Origin: Candidatus Nomurabacteria bacterium GW2011_GWD2_36_14 | Lineage (GTDB): Bacteria > Patescibacteriota > Minisyncoccia > Phycocordibacterales > UBA9973 | Length of the DNA: 64,000 nucleotides | Direction: 5' to 3' | Assembly (NCBI GenBank): GCA_000991405.1 | Contig: LBRL01000001.1 | Span: 3,744-67,743 of the forward strand | Shown here: in pieces, positions 3 through 6,199 of the stretch | Numbering within the stretch: the first letter of the stretch is position 1 | Layout: each line of letters begins with the position of its first letter | Notes under the pieces: model-generated | Databases searched by the model: none | What the model was told of the DNA's origin: nothing | Seen by the model: the letters and a program-made list of their open reading frames with translations, nothing else | Program-made: the position numbers and the translations under genes

Positions 3-173
3 ACAGTAACAACAGAGAATACTTCTACATCAGATAGTAGCACTACTATAGGAGGCACAACAACTACTACACCGTCAGATGTTGTAGCTCCAGATTCAAT
101 TACCAGTGAAGTAGTAACTCCTGCTGTAGAAGCACCAGCTGAAAGTACCTCGGTTGTAAGTAGTACGTTATAA
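3..173 (+). CDS. C-terminal fragment of a Thr/Ser-rich (probably secreted) protein; the gene starts upstream of the window
   Basis: The open frame runs from the window edge to TAA at 171-173. Translation is ..TVTTENTSTSDSSTTIGGTTTTTPSDVVAPDSITSEVVTPAVEAPAESTSVVSSTL, with low-complexity T/S/V composition like the surface proteins downstream. Confidence 0.3.
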   Translation, partial: TVTTENTSTSDSSTTIGGTTTTTPSDVVAPDSITSEVVTPAVEAPAESTSVVSSTL

Positions 174-180
174 GATAAAA

Positions 181-1209
181 ATGATACATTCTTTTCATCA
201 GAAAAATAAAACGAAAAACAATAGATTACATTATTTTTTTTATGTAGCGATTTTTTTTGTTGTTGTATTCTTACCTATTTCGTATCTTTACGCGGCCCTT
301 TCTTGCTCGATTACTACTTCAGTGGCTTGTGGTTCTGATACGGTAATACTTCGAATGTCGGGAAGTACGAATGCTCATGCCGAGCTTCCAAGTCAGTCCA
401 CGGGGGCTTATGATAGTAACGTTGTTTGTTGTACTGGAGTGACAGGATTAGACAATTCTTGTGCCTCCAGCAACAAGGCAATTATTGCTCGACTCTCAGG
501 AGTGACCAATGCACATGTCGAGAAGAATACTGAAGCCAATGCCAACTACACACAGAATGCTTGTATGTCTAGTGCTTATGCTGGAGATGAAATAACTATT
601 GGATACCAAGCGACAAATTGTACAGGGTACGACACTACACTTTTTTCTATGGAGAAGACCCCAACCAATTCTATGGTTGGAAGTCCCGCTACTTATACCA
701 ACAAAGTTTGCGCCAAGGTTTATTCGCAATCAATTTCTTTTAATTTATCTTCATCCTCAGCTGGTTTTGGTAACTTAAATTCTTCTGGTTTACGCTATGC
801 GACTGCTGATGGGGTAGGAAGCTCGACAGAAGCTGAGTCTTATTCTTTGAGTGCCAGTACTAATGCTCCATCGGGTTATGTTCTTATGGTTAAAGGGTCC
901 GCTCCCTCCAAAGGGGCTATTGTTATTGATCCTATAGGTGGTACACCTACAACTCCCACACCAGGCTCGAAAGCTTTTGGTATTAGAGCTGTTGCGACGG
1001 GAGGGGCTGGTACTGTTGTTTCTCCTTATAACGGGTCAGGTTTTGCTTATGATGCCAGTGACACTAGCTTTACAACACTAGCTCAAGCTTCATCGGGGGA
1101 TGGGAATAGTACTTCTTATTCTGTCCGTTCAGTTGCCACTATAGATTCACTTTTAGATCCGGGTATTTATTCTACAAATTTGACATACATTGTTGTTGCC
1201 AACTTTTAA
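181..1209 (+). CDS. Secreted Cys-containing surface protein (paralog 1 of 3). Its C-terminal ~170 aa are homologous to the next two genes
   Basis: It has an N-terminal hydrophobic segment and internal repeats RMSGSTNAHAE / RLSGVTNAHVE. The C-terminal region shares the blocks FGNL.SSG, STNAP.GY, FGIRA.A.GG.G.V, YSVR..A.I and a ..NF end with ORFs 1309-2364 and 2382-3458. Confidence 0.55.
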   Translation: MIHSFHQKNKTKNNRLHYFFYVAIFFVVVFLPISYLYAALSCSITTSVACGSDTVILRMSGSTNAHAELPSQSTGAYDSNVVCCTGVTGLDNSCASSNKAIIARLSGVTNAHVEKNTEANANYTQNACMSSAYAGDEITIGYQATNCTGYDTTLFSMEKTPTNSMVGSPATYTNKVCAKVYSQSISFNLSSSSAGFGNLNSSGLRYATADGVGSSTEAESYSLSASTNAPSGYVLMVKGSAPSKGAIVIDPIGGTPTTPTPGSKAFGIRAVATGGAGTVVSPYNGSGFAYDASDTSFTTLAQASSGDGNSTSYSVRSVATIDSLLDPGIYSTNLTYIVVANF

Positions 1210-1308
1210 GCAAAACAGTGTATAACTTTTTGCTATATATGGTTATATTGTTGTATAATAGACATGTAACATAATTTATCTTTTATTATAACTGTCAATT
1301 ATTTTTTT

Positions 1309-2364
1309 ATGATTAAGAAACTCACGAGTTCCGTTTTAATTCTCGGGATTATAATAATAAATTTTAGTTTTATAACACCACCCATTGCGATGGCGGCCAG
1401 TTTAACCTCTCTATCAGACACCGTATCCAATTTGACAGCCAGCACTGTAGCCAACCACGTTATCAGATTCACTACTCCGACCGGTGTTCCTGCAAGTGGA
1501 ACGATTATTCTTACTTTCGATAATGGTACCAATACAGGATCTGTTGATTATACAGATGTGGACATTCAAGATGATGGTGTTGATGTTGCTGTTGCAGCAA
1601 CTCCTGTAACTACAACGTGGGGAGTAGCCAGGACATCATCCACTGTTATTACTCTTACCAATGGTTCTGCTGCTGTTGCAGGCGGAAGTGTCATTACTAT
1701 AGATATAGGTACCAATGCAACTTATGGAGTTACAGGTACCCATCAGATTACCAACGGTACTGCGGGTACGACAGTTCTTCGTGTTAGTGGAAGTTTCGGA
1801 GATACAGGGGCCATGTCTACTGCCATTGTTTCCAATGGTGTTGTTTCTTTGTCAGCTGAAGTTCTAGCTTCTCTTACTTTTACTGTTTCTGATAACACCA
1901 TTTACTTTGGTAACTTGAAATCATCTGGTAGTTCATGTTGGGCACAAGGTACTGATCCTGGATATGTCACTTGTCCTACTGTCGCTGAGGCTGAGGCCTT
2001 CAATATGACCGCTGCCACAAATGCACCAACTGGTTATACTATAAGTGTCCAAGGGCCTACTCTAACCTCAGGTTCCAACACTATTACAGCTCTAGCTTCA
2101 GCCACTGCTCCTTCTATTGGTAGTGAACAATTTGGTATACGAGCCAATGCATCAGGTGGAAGTGGAGCCGTAAATGCAACTTATGGCACAGCAGGACAAT
2201 ATGCTTTCACTGCCAATGCTACGACAGCAGTAGCTGTGGCGACAGCCTCAGCTCCTTCGGCTACGACTACATACTCCGTTCGTTATATCGCCAACATTTC
2301 TCCCACAACAGAAGCAGGTAGTTATACCGCGGCACATACTTACATTGCAACGGGTAACTTTTGA
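1309..2364 (+). CDS. Secreted surface protein (paralog 2 of 3), function unknown
   Basis: It has a Sec-type signal peptide (MIKKLTSSVLILGIIIINFSFITPPIAMAA). It is ~65% identical along its whole length to the next ORF and ends in the shared ..TGNF tail. It is T/S/G/A-rich. Confidence 0.6.
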   Translation: MIKKLTSSVLILGIIIINFSFITPPIAMAASLTSLSDTVSNLTASTVANHVIRFTTPTGVPASGTIILTFDNGTNTGSVDYTDVDIQDDGVDVAVAATPVTTTWGVARTSSTVITLTNGSAAVAGGSVITIDIGTNATYGVTGTHQITNGTAGTTVLRVSGSFGDTGAMSTAIVSNGVVSLSAEVLASLTFTVSDNTIYFGNLKSSGSSCWAQGTDPGYVTCPTVAEAEAFNMTAATNAPTGYTISVQGPTLTSGSNTITALASATAPSIGSEQFGIRANASGGSGAVNATYGTAGQYAFTANATTAVAVATASAPSATTTYSVRYIANISPTTEAGSYTAAHTYIATGNF

Positions 2365-2405
2365 TTATTATTAGTTAATTATTGTTATTATTAATTTTAT
2401 TTTTT

Positions 2406-3458
2406 ATGATTAAAAAAATTTTGAGTTTTGTGTTAACGGTCGGAATGGTTGTTATAAATTTTGGATTTATAACACCACAGGTGGTTTCTGCTGCTAATTT
2501 GACTTCTATGTCAGACGTAGTGTCAAATCTAACAGCAAGTGCAGTTGCCAACCATACCATAACCTTTACAACACCTACAGGTCTTGCTTCTGGGGCAACT
2601 CTTATCCTTACCTTTGATAACAGTACCAGTATTGATGCTGCATTAACTTATGCAGACGTTGACTTTAGATATGCTTCCACCGATGTTACTTTGGCGGCGG
2701 CTCCATCTGGAGCAACTATGGGAGTAGTTCGTACTTCAGCAACGGTTCTTACATTTACCAATGGAACTACTGTGATTGCTGGAGGTTCAGTAATAGTGAT
2801 TAAGATAGGTACCAATACAACTATAGGTGGTACTGGAACTCACCAAATAACCAACGGTACTGCTGGCACTACACTCCTTCGTGTTAGTGGCACATTTGGA
2901 GATACAGGAGCTATGTCAATGTCAATAATTTCAAATAGTATCGTAGCTGTCTCAGCTGAAGTTCTCTCCAGTCTTTCCTTTACTGTTTCCAGTAATGCTA
3001 TTTACTTTGGTAACTTAAGAACGGCTGGTGCTTGTTTTGCTCAAAATACAAATCCAGGCTATGTAACTTGTCCGACTACAACAGAAACTGAAGCTTTCAA
3101 TATGACAGCTGGAACAAATGCTACAGCTGGTTATACTATAAGTGTCCAAGGTGACACTCTGACCTCAGGAGCCAATACTATTACAGCCCTAGCTTCAAAC
3201 ACGGCTTCTTCTCCTGGTAGTGAACAATTTGGATTGAGAGCAACAGCTACAGGTGGAGGAGGTGCAGTTCAGGCTCCATATGCAGCCGCTGGTTATGCTT
3301 ATACAGGCACAACATCAACTCCAGCCACAGTGGCTACTGCTTCAGCTCCATCCGCTACGACTACATATTCCGTTCGTTATTTAGCCAACATTTCAGCTGT
3401 AACAGAAGCAGGAAGTTATTCTACCTCTCATACTTATGTAGCAACAGGTAACTTCTAA
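2406..3458 (+). CDS. Secreted surface protein (paralog 3 of 3), function unknown
   Basis: The start was moved to the Met of MIKKILSFVL at 2406, which matches the paralog 2 N-terminus. It is collinear with paralog 2: SNLTAS.VANH.I.FTTPTG, LRVSG.FGDTGAMS, YFGNL, GYVTCPT, GSEQFG(I/L)RA, TTTYSVRY.ANIS, ATGNF. Confidence 0.6.
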   Translation: MIKKILSFVLTVGMVVINFGFITPQVVSAANLTSMSDVVSNLTASAVANHTITFTTPTGLASGATLILTFDNSTSIDAALTYADVDFRYASTDVTLAAAPSGATMGVVRTSATVLTFTNGTTVIAGGSVIVIKIGTNTTIGGTGTHQITNGTAGTTLLRVSGTFGDTGAMSMSIISNSIVAVSAEVLSSLSFTVSSNAIYFGNLRTAGACFAQNTNPGYVTCPTTTETEAFNMTAGTNATAGYTISVQGDTLTSGANTITALASNTASSPGSEQFGLRATATGGGGAVQAPYAAAGYAYTGTTSTPATVATASAPSATTTYSVRYLANISAVTEAGSYSTSHTYVATGNF

Positions 3459-3483
3459 TTATTATATATTTCTTGGTAATTAA

Positions 3484-4509
3484 ATGAAAATTAAAAAAAC
3501 AAAATTCAGTTTAATATTTATCGCGGTAATCATCATATCTTTTGTTTATTGCAATAATAGTGCTCAAGCTTTGACTATTTCACCAGCACGTATAGAAGTG
3601 AGTGGAGACCCTGGGACAGTTATCAGTAAAGAGATCACTTTATTGAACGATAGTAAGGCAGGAGAAGAAACTTACTATGTTTCTTATTCCAACTTTGAAG
3701 CTCAAGGCGAGACAGGAAGTCCTTTATTTGTAGAACCTAAGGGCGATCTTGGTACATGGATGAACGCAGGTCAGTCAGTAACTCTTAGGGCCAATGAATC
3801 CAAAAAGATTCTCCTAACTATAACAATACCTCAGGATGCATATTCTGGTGGACACTTTGCTGTTGTTTTCTTTGGCAACAATCCCGACAACGGTGGACAA
3901 GTTTCAGTTGGGGCAAAGACGGGAACCCTCGTTCTTTTAACTGTCAACGGTGATGTTTTAGAAGCCGGAGGTCTTTCCTCTTTTAATACCAAGAATCATA
4001 AATTGTTTTACAATACCTTACCTGTTTCCTTGGAGTATCGATGGAAGAATGATGGAAACGATCGTGTAAAGCCGGATGGGAAAGTTACTATTAGAAATAT
4101 ATTCTATATTCCAGTAGCTCATATAGACGCGAATGCTGTCTCAGGTAATATCTTGCCTCATAGTACTCGTCTTTTTAATGTTGAATGGTTGAAATATAAA
4201 TCTCCTAAAGACGAAGTTGTCAGTCGTTCGTTTCTTGGTTCATTTTTTGAGCGCGTAGATTATCAATGGAAGAACTTTGCTGTCGGACCTTATCTTGCGC
4301 ATCTAGATCTTAATTATGGCAAAGACAATCTTCACAGTAGTAAAACCTTATTATTTTTTGTCTTTCCTTGGCAATTGTTGATTATTATTTTGGTGGTTCT
4401 AATTATTGTATTTTATATTGGAAGGAAACTATTGAAATCATACAATCAACGTATTATCGAGAAAGCTCGCTTGGATATCAATACTCCCAAGCAAGCTAAT
4501 CATGCTTAG
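3484..4509 (+). CDS. Secreted beta-sandwich-like protein with a C-terminal transmembrane anchor. It resembles DUF916-type cell-surface proteins from Firmicutes WxL/Csc surface loci
   Basis: It has a signal peptide. ISPARIEVSGDPG...TLLNDS...SGGHFAVVFFG matches the DUF916-like pattern (V.V.P...L.N.S ... GG..f). The C-terminal hydrophobic stretch LLFFVFPWQLLIIILVVLIIVFYIGRK is followed by basic residues. Confidence 0.4.
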   Translation: MKIKKTKFSLIFIAVIIISFVYCNNSAQALTISPARIEVSGDPGTVISKEITLLNDSKAGEETYYVSYSNFEAQGETGSPLFVEPKGDLGTWMNAGQSVTLRANESKKILLTITIPQDAYSGGHFAVVFFGNNPDNGGQVSVGAKTGTLVLLTVNGDVLEAGGLSSFNTKNHKLFYNTLPVSLEYRWKNDGNDRVKPDGKVTIRNIFYIPVAHIDANAVSGNILPHSTRLFNVEWLKYKSPKDEVVSRSFLGSFFERVDYQWKNFAVGPYLAHLDLNYGKDNLHSSKTLLFFVFPWQLLIIILVVLIIVFYIGRKLLKSYNQRIIEKARLDINTPKQANHA

Positions 4510-5302
4510 AATTCTATTAAAAAATATTCTCATATGTTTTTCATTATTTGTGTTTTTGATTCCACAAGTACTTTTTGCTGATGGGTCAGCAACTGTCACT
4601 ATCTCAGCTATGGTTGGAGTATCTGCTCCAGTATCTCCAGATGAAGGTGGTGGAAGCGGAAGTGGCGTGGGTGGCGTATTGGTAACCATACCAGATAGCC
4701 CAACGGTTATAAATTTTTCTGGTTTTGCGTACCTTTTCTCCAGTGTTTATATTTTAATAGATGGCCAAGCTATCATGGCAACAACCCCCGATAAAACGGC
4801 TCATTTTTCAGCATCAATTTCAGGACTACAAGCTGGGACTTACAATTTCTCCATTTATGGAGAGGATGATAATGGGAAGAAATCTTCTGTTTTATCATTT
4901 CCGATAATTGTGACCAAGTCTAATATTATCAATATTAGTAACATATTTTTATCTAGAACTCTTGATTTAGATAATAATGAAATTAAAACGGATACTAATC
5001 TAGTAGATATCCTTCCCAAGAATGATTCTCTAAAGACAAAACCTCCTCTGGAAGGGAAAACAACGGAAGACCAAGCCCTCGACCCTCTTTTAAATAGAGA
5101 CACAACTATACCTAACAATGGAGTTAATTATTACGTATCAAGGGTGGATTTCAATAGCGATAATCATATTGATTTAAAGGACTTCTCTGTGCTTGTTAGT
5201 TGGTATACGAAACCAAAACCTCCAAGGGGTATTGATCTAAATGATGACGGCAAGATTACCTTAGCAGACTTTAGTATTATGGCATCTCATTGGACTGATT
5301 AA
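4502..5302 (+). CDS. Secreted protein with a C-terminal dockerin domain (two Ca-binding repeats)
   Basis: It has a signal peptide. The C-terminus has two EF-hand-like dockerin repeats: DFNSDNHIDLKDFSVLVSWY and DLNDDGKITLADFSIMASHW. Both fit DxNxDGxxxxxD followed by an aromatic residue. Confidence 0.7.
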   Translation: MLRILLKNILICFSLFVFLIPQVLFADGSATVTISAMVGVSAPVSPDEGGGSGSGVGGVLVTIPDSPTVINFSGFAYLFSSVYILIDGQAIMATTPDKTAHFSASISGLQAGTYNFSIYGEDDNGKKSSVLSFPIIVTKSNIINISNIFLSRTLDLDNNEIKTDTNLVDILPKNDSLKTKPPLEGKTTEDQALDPLLNRDTTIPNNGVNYYVSRVDFNSDNHIDLKDFSVLVSWYTKPKPPRGIDLNDDGKITLADFSIMASHWTD

Positions 5303-5308
5303 ATATTT

Positions 5309-6199
5309 ATGAGAAAAATTATAATATTTACAATCTTTTTTATCTTAAATTTATTTATAACAAATAAGATATTTGCTGCCACTTTGACATTAGTTTCTTC
5401 AAAGGAATCTCTTGGTGTTGGTGAACAATTTTACATGGATCTCATGTTAGACCCAGAAGGAAAATCATTAAATGCCATAGAGGGAAATATTTCATTCTCG
5501 AGCGATTATGTTTCTTTCGTTCGAGCTGAGGAAGGTAAATCCATTGTCAGTCTGTGGGTAGAGAAACCAAAACTAAATAATATTAACGATAATTCTATTA
5601 ATTTCTCTGGGATTATACCCAATGGATTTAGTGGTGTTATTGATCCATTTAATCCTAAATATAAATTATCAGTCTTAGTACTTCGTTTTGTTTTTGAAGC
5701 TAAAAAGCCAGGAATAGCCAACTTTTCTTCCTTGCCTTTTTCTTTATATCTAAACGATGGATTAGGTACCGAGATAAAAGCGCTCCCCGTTAATATGTCA
5801 CTCAATATTGATAATTTTGTTTTTCATTACACATATGAGAATAAGAATGAAAGCATTCCAACCTTAGAAGCACATGTCGTACGTACTCCAAATATTTTTA
5901 ACAACAAGTATACTATCATTTTTGATGCTAGAGATAAGGAAGTAGGAATAAAAAGTGTATTTATAAAAGAAGGTAACAGCGAATGGAAAGAAATAGAAAG
6001 TCCATATAAACTTGAAGATCAATCTCGTCATAGTGACATCACCTTACAAGCTATCAACTTTTCTGAAGCTAGTATTATTATGAAGATTGATAAAGTACCA
6101 TATAGTATAAAGTTTTATATTCAAATAATTATTATTATTCTTATTGTTACTATTTCTTCTATTATTTTAATTCGAAAGAGATATCTTAAAGATAAATAA
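5309..6199 (+). CDS. Cohesin-like domain protein with a C-terminal transmembrane anchor (putative membrane-bound scaffoldin)
   Basis: It has a signal peptide. LTLVSSKESLGVGEQFYMDLMLDPEGKSLNAIEGNISFSSDYVSFV..GKSI fits the cohesin N-terminal strand pattern (V.V....V..G..F.V.V......gi.a..f.l.yd...L). The C-terminal segment FYIQIIIIILIVTISSIILIRKRY is a membrane anchor. Confidence 0.5.
   Translation: MRKIIIFTIFFILNLFITNKIFAATLTLVSSKESLGVGEQFYMDLMLDPEGKSLNAIEGNISFSSDYVSFVRAEEGKSIVSLWVEKPKLNNINDNSINFSGIIPNGFSGVIDPFNPKYKLSVLVLRFVFEAKKPGIANFSSLPFSLYLNDGLGTEIKALPVNMSLNIDNFVFHYTYENKNESIPTLEAHVVRTPNIFNNKYTIIFDARDKEVGIKSVFIKEGNSEWKEIESPYKLEDQSRHSDITLQAINFSEASIIMKIDKVPYSIKFYIQIIIIILIVTISSIILIRKRYLKDK

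Follow-up and report, generated by a model that had tools for sequence, protein, structure and literature searches.

Judged from its sequence, the segment at positions 181 to 6199 of the window (the whole stretch of DNA that was analysed, 64 kb from an ultra-small bacterium of Candidatus Nomurabacteria, in the Parcubacteria/CPR) is a Pam-type pilus operon of six genes with Sec-dependent export, the last two of which encode a dockerin protein and a cohesin protein. The most likely role of this pair is to attach the pilus at its base to the cell membrane. We place it among the donor-strand pilus operons because its three secreted paralogs are Pam-type pilins by the NCBIfam model NF058581. The six genes are tightly packed on one strand, preceded by a tail-fibre-like gene that is listed for context only:

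1–173, + strand: 3' end of the tail-fibre-like gene, which encodes a 2162-aa protein with a Peptidase_S74 domain
181–1209, + strand: pil1, Pam-type pilin, of the class whose gene comes first in every such operon (NF058581 CPR_Pam_pilin_C, 60.2 bits)
1309–2364, + strand: pil2, Pam-type shaft pilin (NF058581, 86.2 bits)
2382–3458, + strand: pil3, Pam-type shaft pilin and pil2 paralog (NF058581, 86.3 bits)
3484–4509, + strand: p4, WxLIP/DUF916-like protein carrying two Ig-like domains between a signal peptide and a C-terminal TM helix
4502–5302, + strand: p5, dockerin protein of 266 aa (Dockerin_1, family profile, AF2 model)
5309–6199, + strand: p6, membrane-anchored cohesin of 296 aa

The initial annotation had called the last two ORFs at these positions on the plus strand and had taken the six genes for one unit, and both calls stand: the genes share a strand, with an 8-nt overlap between p4 and p5 and a gap of 6 nt between p5 and p6. 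At the upstream end, frame 3 of window positions 3–173 is open until its stop, and in an identical locus of a public contig (L081, 1–4865) the Peptidase_S74 gene stops 8 nt before pil1; Troman et al. (bioRxiv 10.64898/2026.03.03.709456) report that pam operons are conservedly flanked by a tail-fibre-like gene. Neither promoter-like sites (18 observed versus 21.9 ± 4.7 in shuffle controls) nor terminator-like sites (8 versus 4.3 ± 2.4) showed a clear excess. The p5 and p6 genes lie in a common reading frame. Three ORFs on the minus strand within the region (4438–4689, 4855–5118 and 5506–5805) are probably spurious, since the plus-strand genes that they overlap are conserved and have confident folds. 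All six operon proteins are annotated 'hypothetical', and the sole informative name seen among relatives was 'cohesin domain-containing protein', on one p6 relative (P0026), so that the gain in annotation is large.

Pilins and a candidate chaperone

The three paralogous secreted proteins pointed out in the initial annotation proved real, and NF058581 marks them as Pam-type pilins, all three exceeding the model's cut-off of 55 bits. Pil1, the counterpart of the first pilin gene in related operons, opens with a signal peptide, after which come an N-terminal domain rich in Cys (8 Cys) and the Pam C-terminal domain; it carries KVCAKV at the linker position in place of the shaft motif and may be a tip or adhesin subunit. 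The linker between N-terminal and C-terminal domains (NTD-CTD) holds the motif VSLSAEV in pil2 (encoded at 1843–1863) and VAVSAEV in pil3 (2943–2963), and in the shaft pilins of related loci the pattern V.[VIL][ST]A.V occupies a fixed site, about 165–185 aa from the C-terminus and ahead of the C-terminal domain. Public gene calls place the start of pil2 at window position 1390. The donor-strand position in pil2 and pil3 is taken from the description of PamA/B and not from structures of these pilins. Searches of the PDB with pil2, and then with a profile of 42 pilin C-terminal halves, returned no relative, and the PamA/B models (25PZ, 25QA) were absent from the results of both. For PamT, a tip pilin with a single domain, the equivalog model NF058579 reached at best 43 bits, on the shaft pilins, against its cut-off of 240.

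The anchored protein encoded upstream of the dockerin gene had been described as DUF916-like, and the p4 family bears this description out. The Pfam matches of p4 itself are weak (fn3_5, and WxLIP_PGBD at 17 bits against a cut-off of 27.3), and WxLIP_PGBD is matched by 17 of 41 family members (E < 0.01; best 3.9e-6). Similarly, the p4 family profile gave a weak match to EfmWxLIP1 (9i25/9i1y), with an E-value of 0.4 over 200 residues. The TM segment of p4 lies within residues 287–318. An NCBIfam search at E ≤ 10 retrieved no Pam-related model for p4, p5 or p6, and a profile search of a set of 5.8 billion proteins yielded 843 relatives of p4, of which the 120 among the matches listed are all unnamed or 'hypothetical' and provide no link to PamC/D. 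On its sequence features, we regard p4 as a candidate membrane-anchored pilin chaperone that may be the functional counterpart of PamC/PamD, the membrane-anchored chaperones of PapD/FimC type.

Dockerin and cohesin modules of p5 and p6

The two proteins at the end of the operon are each composed of several parts:

4502–4579, + strand: p5 signal peptide
4595–4633, + strand: p5 pilin-linker-like strand VTISAMVGVSAPV, the N-terminal motif
4703–4948, + strand: p5 Ig-like domain, with a Gly-rich linker before it and a disordered linker after it
5138–5299, + strand: p5 dockerin
5309–5377, + strand: p6 signal peptide
5378–5824, + strand: p6 cohesin
5861–6088, + strand: p6 FN3/Ig-like domain
6107–6172, + strand: p6 TM helix (residues 267–288), followed by the basic cytoplasmic tail RKRYLKDK

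Dockerin_1, family-profile and fold evidence together upheld the initial view that a dockerin gene and a cohesin gene lie side by side here. Dockerins are built on a duplicated Ca-binding loop-helix (F-hand) motif with about 22 residues per repeat and about 60 in total, and the p5 module shows this duplicated arrangement. Repeat 1 (D216-F-N-S-D-N-H-I-D-L-K-D227) and repeat 2 (D245-L-N-D-D-G-K-I-T-L-A-D256) are 12-residue loops, both with EF-hand-type ligands (D/N) at positions 1, 3, 5 and 12. The Pfam model Dockerin_1 matched p5 residues 216–261 with an E-value of 4.5e-4, its 20.8 bits lying 2 bits below the gathering score of 22.9, and at E ≤ 0.001 it matched 25 of 28 p5 family members (best 5.9e-10). 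A profile of the family's C-terminal module retrieved the solved dockerins 2y3n_B (E 6.7e-11), 5nrm_B (2.5e-5) and 1daq (1.5e-3). In the AF2 model the Ig domain and the dockerin are confident, the latter with helices at residues 225–233 and 254–264 and a pLDDT of about 90, and residues 26–62 are unpacked and of low confidence; this fits a modelled N-terminal region that may serve as a strand in need of a partner. When the p5 model was compared with the PDB by Foldseek, its middle domain drew generic Ig, FN3 and CBM20-type matches only, and the result was uninformative for the dockerin. No enzyme or catalytic domain emerged in p5 from family matches, the AF2 model or Foldseek, the protein having one Ig-like domain only.

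Cohesins are nine-stranded beta-sandwich (jelly-roll) modules of about 140–150 residues, a description that the p6 module fits, and its top fold matches include the OlpA and OlpC cohesins (4dh2, 3ul4). It is tethered by the TM helix, with no SLH or sortase signal in p6, as the initial annotation had held. By contrast, the further proposal of a cellulosome-like or S-layer-like scaffold with many clients is not borne out: the secreted paralogs are Pam pilins, p5 has no enzyme, only one dockerin and one cohesin occur in the whole 64-kb window (of a genome of about 0.8 Mb), and related genomes show the two genes in synteny with pilin genes. Within the window, no multi-cohesin scaffoldin accompanied by dockerin-bearing enzymes was found.

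Gene order and strand motif in related loci

We compared the operon with 80 loci from GTDB species representatives. In 67 of the 68 loci whose DNA extends far enough, the first cohesin gene is immediately preceded by a dockerin gene; a p4-like gene precedes the dockerin gene in 44/60, and class-1 Pam pilins are found further upstream, before the p4-like gene, in 23 of 44. In about 20 loci the dockerin-cohesin pair comes with other N-terminal modules, and class-1 pilins went undetected there; the pair is therefore not tied to pili alone. Most related loci hold two or three cohesin(-TM) genes, and up to five, versus the single gene here; these paralogs differ from each other within an operon, and some have long cytoplasmic tails.

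The mature N-terminus of p5, VTISAMV, repeats the linker motif of the shaft pilins. Among dockerin proteins from pilin-bearing loci, 27 of 32 have this motif no more than about 35 residues past the signal peptide, versus 1 of 20 where at least 3.5 kb of upstream DNA is free of these pilins; by chance 0.012 would be expected per protein, for a motif that was defined after inspection of the data, and the counts are not independent events because the loci are phylogenetically related. When a PSSM of the pilin linker was built with one locus left out at a time, its best match to the dockerin protein fell within mature residues 1–30 in 15/20 cases (chance about 0.11 each). A second class of loci has different pilins, and there the dockerin protein and the local pilin have similar N-termini, for example EIATTTVRV versus DIATTSVTV (L068) and DTSSVSVTV versus DTATTSVTV (L045). 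A blind comparison of best 9-mers by BLOSUM gave the dockerin-protein N-termini no significant preference for cognate over non-cognate pilins (23.1 versus 22.1, p 0.14) and a p of 0.05 against shuffled sequence. Dockerin-protein N-termini and pilins are all rich in T, S and V.

A proposed pilus anchor, its alternatives and known systems

We favour, with a probability of roughly 0.55, a Pam-type pilus operon in which p5 caps the fibre with its strand and plugs its dockerin into the membrane cohesin p6. P4 would hold the C-terminal domains of the pilins at the membrane, as has been proposed for PamC/D and WxLIP, pil1 would start the fibre, and pil2 and pil3 would extend it, each using its NTD-CTD linker strand (V-x-h-S/T-A-x-V) to fill the groove of the subunit before it. 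P5, which has a pilin-type strand at its mature N-terminus and no acceptor domain, would give this strand to the last pilin, so that polymerisation would end. The Ca-loaded dockerin of p5 would then dock onto the p6 cohesin, a pairing that we infer, as the initial annotation did, and the FN3-like stalk and TM helix of p6 would hold the fibre at the cytoplasmic membrane, making p5 and p6 a split, non-covalent counterpart of the single-chain PamR anchor. More broadly, we put forward at slightly less than even odds that in CPR of the Parcubacteria/Paceibacteria type a dockerin protein and one or more TM cohesins form the standard non-covalent anchor of donor-strand fibres (Pam-type and related), the dockerin protein starting with a copy of the polymerisation strand or module of the local pilins.

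The pairs found without detectable class-1 pilins could instead point to a general surface-display cassette, close to the scaffold idea, in which p6 would be an all-purpose hook in the membrane, open to any surface protein of this organism with a dockerin tag, and its position beside the pilus genes would reflect co-regulation of envelope genes with no physical link to a pilus. The dockerin proteins of those loci carry FN3 arrays and Cys-rich modules as other N-terminal parts (a dockerin-bearing ORF in L066 runs off the end of the locus at no fewer than 1858 aa, and the L078 protein has 963 aa), and the multiple cohesin-TM genes of most loci also accord with such hooks. However, p5 bears no cargo beyond its one Ig domain and, with its cohesin, stands single in 64 kb; it is translationally coupled to the chaperone-like p4 gene, its N-terminus copies the pilin linker motif, and the alternative N-terminal modules of other loci recur on local pilin-like proteins, all of which makes display unlikely as the role of this pair. 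Pam systems have no usher or trans-envelope machine, and a p5-p6 complex might act in pilus biogenesis and be absent from the finished fibre, for instance by standing in for an usher, as a platform in the membrane or as a primer, in the recruitment of chaperone-pilin complexes; the several cohesin-TM paralogs of related operons, of which some have long cytoplasmic tails, would suit a platform. We consider this improbable, as neither p5 nor p6 has any likeness to an usher or enzyme, and a donor-type strand with no acceptor domain is more simply understood as a terminal subunit.

The partners might also be other than the neighbours, with the p5 dockerin binding a cohesin encoded elsewhere or a structure of the host cell, and p6 binding other dockerins. 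Cohesin-dockerin specificity cannot be read from sequence, and the scan covered 64 kb of a genome of about 0.8 Mb. Yet the adjacency in 67/68 species-level loci extends over very divergent CPR lineages, with cohesin identity down to about 25%, and is therefore hard to explain without a direct functional link, so that non-cognate neighbours strike us as very improbable. We give the least credence to the view that the folds are present without their classical function, the 'dockerin' being a Ca-binding stabiliser and the 'cohesin' a generic beta-sandwich spacer or glycan binder.

Attachment to other cells is the way of life of CPR bacteria, and surface fibres are central to it. Recognition of the Pam pilus dates only from 2026, and how it is held on a cell without an outer membrane or usher is still a model, to which the locus suggests a modular answer in the form of a cohesin-dockerin joint between fibre base and membrane, encoded by a gene pair that is kept in at least 67 species-level genomes. 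If the broader reading, of a standard anchor across such CPR, is right, it would be a new mode of pilus anchoring that uses no usher, sortase or platform ATPase, and it would give the widespread non-cellulosomal cohesin-dockerin pairs of CPR a first concrete cellular role, a testable function for modules whose roles outside cellulosomes are largely unknown. Such a joint could also serve as a small orthogonal protein-protein connector. Pam-type pili are remarked to be easily shed (bioRxiv 10.64898/2026.03.03.709456); a non-covalent, Ca-dependent joint could explain this.

The closest known system is the pam operon of Candidatus Mycosynbacter amalyticus, which encodes a CPR donor-strand pilus and in which PamR (an N-terminal strand, two FnIII domains and a TM helix) is the proposed terminator and anchor; the preprint makes no mention of dockerin or cohesin (Troman et al., bioRxiv 10.64898/2026.03.03.709456). 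Both operons have several Sec-exported pilins that share the truncated-Ig domain at the Pam C-terminus, a chaperone-like protein (here the candidate p4) in which two beta-domains are followed by a TM helix at the C-terminus, an adjoining tail-fibre-like gene, no usher, and a proposed terminator/anchor that combines a donor-type strand at its N-terminus with a membrane helix. In its sequence p4 is like WxLIP/DUF916, and its equivalence to PamC/D would be one of function. Unlike the published homologues, which are mainly from Saccharimonadia and Microgenomatia, the present operon belongs to the Parcubacteria/Nomurabacteria; it has neither a PamT equivalog nor the PamR architecture in one chain, and the anchor role would be divided between a strand-Ig-dockerin protein and a cohesin-FN3-like-TM protein.

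Among cohesin-dockerin systems, the anchoring scaffoldins of cellulosomes (OlpA, OlpC and SdbA of C. thermocellum, ScaE of R. flavefaciens) likewise present a cell-bound cohesin to a dockerin-bearing protein, as p6 would do. Those scaffoldins are SLH- or sortase-anchored and carry or recruit multi-cohesin scaffoldins and enzymes, whereas p6 has a TM helix, one cohesin and no enzymes. Non-cellulosomal pairs occur in Clostridium perfringens glycoside hydrolases (2w1n, Coh-FN3 of GH84C; 2vo8) and in Archaeoglobus fulgidus (cohesin 2xdh). Their modules sit on secreted enzymes or soluble proteins; p6, by contrast, is free of enzyme domains and terminates in a TM helix, and the gene paired with it, within a pilus operon, encodes a small protein with an Ig domain.

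The WxL/Csc clusters of Firmicutes encode WxLIP (DUF916-DUF3324-TM) and, unlike the p5/p6 operon, no cohesin or dockerin, and their WxL domains are described as peptidoglycan-binding and not as filament subunits (PMC10599100). With these clusters the operon shares the WxLIP architecture and a weak sequence match in p4, that is, a TM-anchored two-Ig protein beside secreted proteins with a conserved C-terminal domain, into which strand insertion is predicted.

Finally, PapH, the terminator of chaperone-usher pili, is a pilin-fold subunit held in the outer-membrane usher. In PapH and in the proposed role of p5, the last subunit gives a donor strand and cannot accept one, so that growth ends and the subunit comes to lie at the base. 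Unlike PapH, p5 lacks a pilin acceptor domain, and what would hold it is the contact of its dockerin with a cohesin at the cytoplasmic membrane.

Operon layout, pilins and candidate chaperone

Six tightly packed ORFs, all on the + strand, lie within positions 181-6199 of the window:

3-173, +, last codons (3' end) of the gene for a 2162-aa Peptidase_S74 protein (positions 1-4865 of L081, a public contig with the identical locus)
181-1209, +, pil1, first pilin gene
1309-2364, +, pil2, pilin gene
2382-3458, +, pil3, pilin gene
3484-4509, +, p4, candidate chaperone gene
4502-5302, +, p5, dockerin protein gene
5309-6199, +, p6, cohesin protein gene
from 6315, gyrB, directly after p6

The p4 and p5 genes overlap by 8 nt (ATGCTTAG), and within the six-gene block neither promoter-like sites (18 versus 21.9 ± 4.7 in shuffled sequence) nor terminator-like sites (8 versus 4.3 ± 2.4) were in clear excess. 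A signal-peptide-like hydrophobic N-terminal segment is present on all six proteins, and a second, C-terminal hydrophobic segment on p4 and p6 only. On L081, the Peptidase_S74 gene (phage tail-fibre/endosialidase chaperone) stops 8 nt upstream of pil1; a conserved tail-fibre-like gene also adjoins the published pam operons (bioRxiv 10.64898/2026.03.03.709456).

The initial annotation had placed the three upstream paralogs, as secreted proteins, in a surface-structure operon. They are Pam-type pilins: NF058581 (NCBIfam, 'Pam pilus system pilin subunit, C-terminal domain') scores 60, 86 and 86 bits for pil1, pil2 and pil3, above the cut-off of 55. The Pam pilus was described in 2026 in Ca. Mycosynbacter amalyticus: its two-domain pilins donate an inter-domain strand into the neighbour's truncated Ig-like C-terminal domain, PamC/D are PapD-like membrane-anchored chaperones with a C-terminal TM helix, PamT is the tip pilin, and PamR, which has two FnIII domains, a TM helix and a strand at its N-terminus, was suggested to end growth and tether the fibre by placing that strand in the final pilin (bioRxiv 10.64898/2026.03.03.709456).

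Shaft-type pilins, encoded just upstream of p4, carry the motif V-x-[VIL]-[ST]-A-x-V (VSLSAEV in pil2, VAVSAEV in pil3) 165-185 residues from the C-terminus, at a fixed position abutting the start of the C-terminal domain; the assignment of this segment as donor strand is taken from the published Pam description, not from structures of these pilins. The first pilin in every operon departs from the shaft motif at this linker position, where pil1 has KVCAKV (its Cys being C177). The N-terminal domain of pil1 (residues ~40-180) holds 8 Cys and an internal repeat (ILRMSGSTNAHAE / IARLSGVTNAHVE); it may serve as a tip or adhesin domain locked by disulfides.

The Ig-like domains of p4 lie between a signal peptide and a TM helix at the C-terminus, and the protein weakly matches WxLIP_PGBD (DUF916) and fn3_5 in Pfam; WxLIP_PGBD reaches E < 0.01 in 17/41 relatives, and across 200 residues the family profile aligns weakly (E 0.4) with the solved EfmWxLIP1. 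Proteins of the WxLIP type have two Ig domains and a TM anchor, and are predicted to place a strand of a hairpin in the WxL domain (PMC10599100); a membrane-bound pilin chaperone follows the same logic, and p4 is a candidate for that role. Its family comprises at least 843 protein clusters, unnamed among the matches listed; because it is distantly WxLIP/DUF916-like, it suggests an ancestry or mechanism common to CPR Pam-type operons and Firmicutes WxL/Csc surface clusters.

Dockerin and cohesin modules of p5 and p6

Two loops of 12 residues, D216-FNSDNHIDLK-D227 and D245-LNDDGKITLA-D256, lie within the last 54 residues of p5; in each, EF-hand positions 1, 3, 5 and 12 are occupied by acidic or amide residues, and DFS[VI] and then a helix come after the loop. 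Residues 216-261 match Pfam Dockerin_1 with E 4.5e-4 and 20.8 bits, 2 bits short of the gathering score (22.9), and 25 of the 28 detectable relatives match it at E ≤ 0.001. A profile of the C-terminal module from related loci matches solved dockerins across both repeats (2y3n_B, E 6.7e-11; 5nrm_B, 2.5e-5; CelS dockerin, 1.5e-3). In the AF2 model (mean pLDDT 72), a signal helix (2-19) and an unpacked low-confidence stretch (26-62) precede a confident Ig-like sandwich (68-149), a disordered region (160-212) and a confident two-helix module (213-266). The whole model matched only generic Ig/FN3/CBM20-like domains in Foldseek, and no catalytic domain was found by Pfam, the AF2 model or Foldseek.

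A Big_6 Ig domain is matched by 19/28 p5 relatives, and in most p5 relatives a second one separates the first from the dockerin. The corresponding stretch in p5 (residues ~150-212, window 4950-5137) is shorter and poorly conserved, with predicted disorder (pLDDT 35-38), and looks like a decayed Ig domain turned linker. The dockerin repeats of the family (window 5138-5299) are near-symmetrical (consensus DLNxDxxVNLIDFSIxAYWY / DLNxDGKVxLxDFSIMAYYW); such symmetry is associated with a dual binding mode in cellulosomal dockerins.

A Candidatus Nomurabacteria MAG encodes a 'hypothetical protein' with exactly the p6 sequence, so the window belongs to a CPR/Patescibacteria bacterium; p6 itself has no significant match in Pfam or NCBIfam. 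Among its 91 relatives, one bears the NCBI name 'cohesin domain-containing protein' and two distant ones match Pfam Cohesin; the family profile aligns with one relative, P0091 (hhalign probability 99%, E 4.6e-18), over the region in which P0091 exceeds the Pfam Cohesin cut-off (30.1 versus 24.1 bits). The AF2 model (44-sequence alignment, pLDDT 93) comprises a signal helix, beta-domains at 25-171 and 185-260, and a helix at 267-295. Its top Foldseek match in the PDB is 2w1n, a cohesin+FN3 construct of C. perfringens GH84C (E 4e-11); the majority of the 50 matches listed are cohesins, of all types, with target TM-scores of ~0.5-0.77 for single-module ones. Because a cohesin fold is predicted for the very segment singled out by the initial annotation and the repeats pass dockerin profiles at family level, both module assignments hold. 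Another distant relative, P0090 (252 aa), carries Pfam Cohesin (67-187) and Dockerin_1 (200-245) in a single short chain and could self-associate or form chains.

Conservation of the pair and a pilin-like strand in the dockerin protein

Scanning one genome per GTDB species located p6 relatives on 98 stretches, and the best 80 of these 98 loci, nearly all labelled CPR, were analysed with dockerin, p4, pilin and cohesin HMMs iterated on the loci themselves. The adjacency noted initially, with 6 nt between the two genes here, recurs widely: the first cohesin gene is directly preceded by a dockerin gene in 67/68 loci that have 1 kb or more of DNA upstream. Before the dockerin gene comes a p4-like gene in 44/60 loci, and before that come two to four Pam-type pilin genes in 23/44 loci. 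Most loci have one to four extra TM-anchored cohesin genes downstream (for example L002 10824-13138, L004 10776-13033, L018 10794-12830, L050 9887-15550), some with long charged cytoplasmic tails and two fused in L018; the window has a single cohesin gene, directly followed by gyrB. Eight loci (L028, L031, L046, L049, L060, L071, L076, L077) come from MAGs titled Gammaproteobacteria, Pseudomonadales, Nitrospira or Promethearchaeota and are probably mis-binned CPR contigs rather than cases of horizontal transfer.

The shaft-pilin motif is present again in p5, whose mature N-terminus (DGSATVTISAMVGVSAPV) leads into a Gly-rich linker. The strict motif, defined post hoc after data inspection, occurs within ~35 residues past the signal peptide in 27/32 dockerin proteins from pilin-bearing operons and in 1/20 from loci without such pilins despite enough upstream DNA (background expectation 0.012 per protein). 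When a pilin-linker PSSM was run leave-one-locus-out against the dockerin proteins, the best match fell among the first 30 residues of the mature protein in 15/20 cases (chance rate ~0.11 per case; binomial probability ~4e-11 by our own arithmetic); motif and PSSM counts alike come from loci related by descent and are not independent events. A blind best-9-mer BLOSUM comparison of cognate versus non-cognate dockerin-protein/pilin pairs was not significant. In a second locus class, where both the pilins and p4 are divergent, dockerin proteins begin much like the mature form of their local pilin (EIATTTVRV versus DIATTSVTV; DTSSVSVTV versus DTATTSVTV).

The divergent pilin-like proteins of this second class, with ...GTYTGT... 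C-termini (L026, L040, L042, L045, L063, L065, L068, L072, L077) are encoded at the usual pilin position upstream of a p4-like gene and were not detected by the Pam HMMs. Dockerin proteins of a third class (L024, L028, L043, L050, L052, L054, L056, L057, L061, L062, L064, L067, L069, L074, L080) begin with a ~60 aa module, F-[ST]-S-x-N-F...D-P-V...S-x-S-F, at loci that have neither p4-like nor pilin genes; at L024 and L064, the two inspected, the dockerin gene adjoins genes for three ~130 aa TM proteins and one giant protein (>2000 aa). The same module is found on pilin-like proteins of L065 (4719-5783) and L058 (5544-7046).

Proposed anchoring and relation to known systems

We consider it highly probable (about 0.85) that p5 and p6 are a cognate dockerin/cohesin gene pair and that this pair belongs, as a conserved and integral component, to a Pam-type pilus operon. 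Less likely readings are a general display cassette or an assembly platform, to be weighed against the pilin-like strand of p5; non-cognate neighbours, whose recurrent adjacency would need another explanation; and folds that lack the classical binding function. A cellulosome-like system, as proposed initially, is not what the window encodes, since neither p5 nor p6 carries an enzyme domain and the whole 64 kb holds exactly one cohesin and one dockerin.

All components are taken to be exported by Sec, as the signal peptides in their sequences indicate. Beyond this, a largely inferred scheme, which we favour by a modest margin over its being wrong, would have p4 retained in the membrane and shielding pilin C-terminal domains, pil1, which bears the Cys-rich N-terminal domain, starting the fibre, and pil2 and pil3 extending it through linker-strand donation. 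The proximal end would be capped by p5, because p5 has the linker-like strand and lacks an acceptor domain; its dockerin would bind the p6 cohesin, whose FN3-like stalk and TM helix would keep the fibre at the membrane.

Full-text literature searches found no description of pilus operons of this kind that end, as a conserved feature, in genes for a dockerin protein and TM-anchored cohesins; the Pam preprint mentions neither dockerin nor cohesin (bioRxiv 10.64898/2026.03.03.709456), and the nearest mention is of an essential dockerin-domain protein of a Saccharibacterium. We therefore place the novelty in the combination of terminal dockerin and TM-anchored cohesin genes, the dockerin protein bearing a strand like that of the pilins. 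The pilus type has been known since 2026, with NCBIfam models, and the p5 dockerin and p6 cohesin are ordinary superfamily members, the latter nearest in structure to the C. perfringens and A. fulgidus cohesins, which are non-cellulosomal. As a unit, p5 and p6 would constitute a two-piece counterpart of PamR, joined non-covalently.
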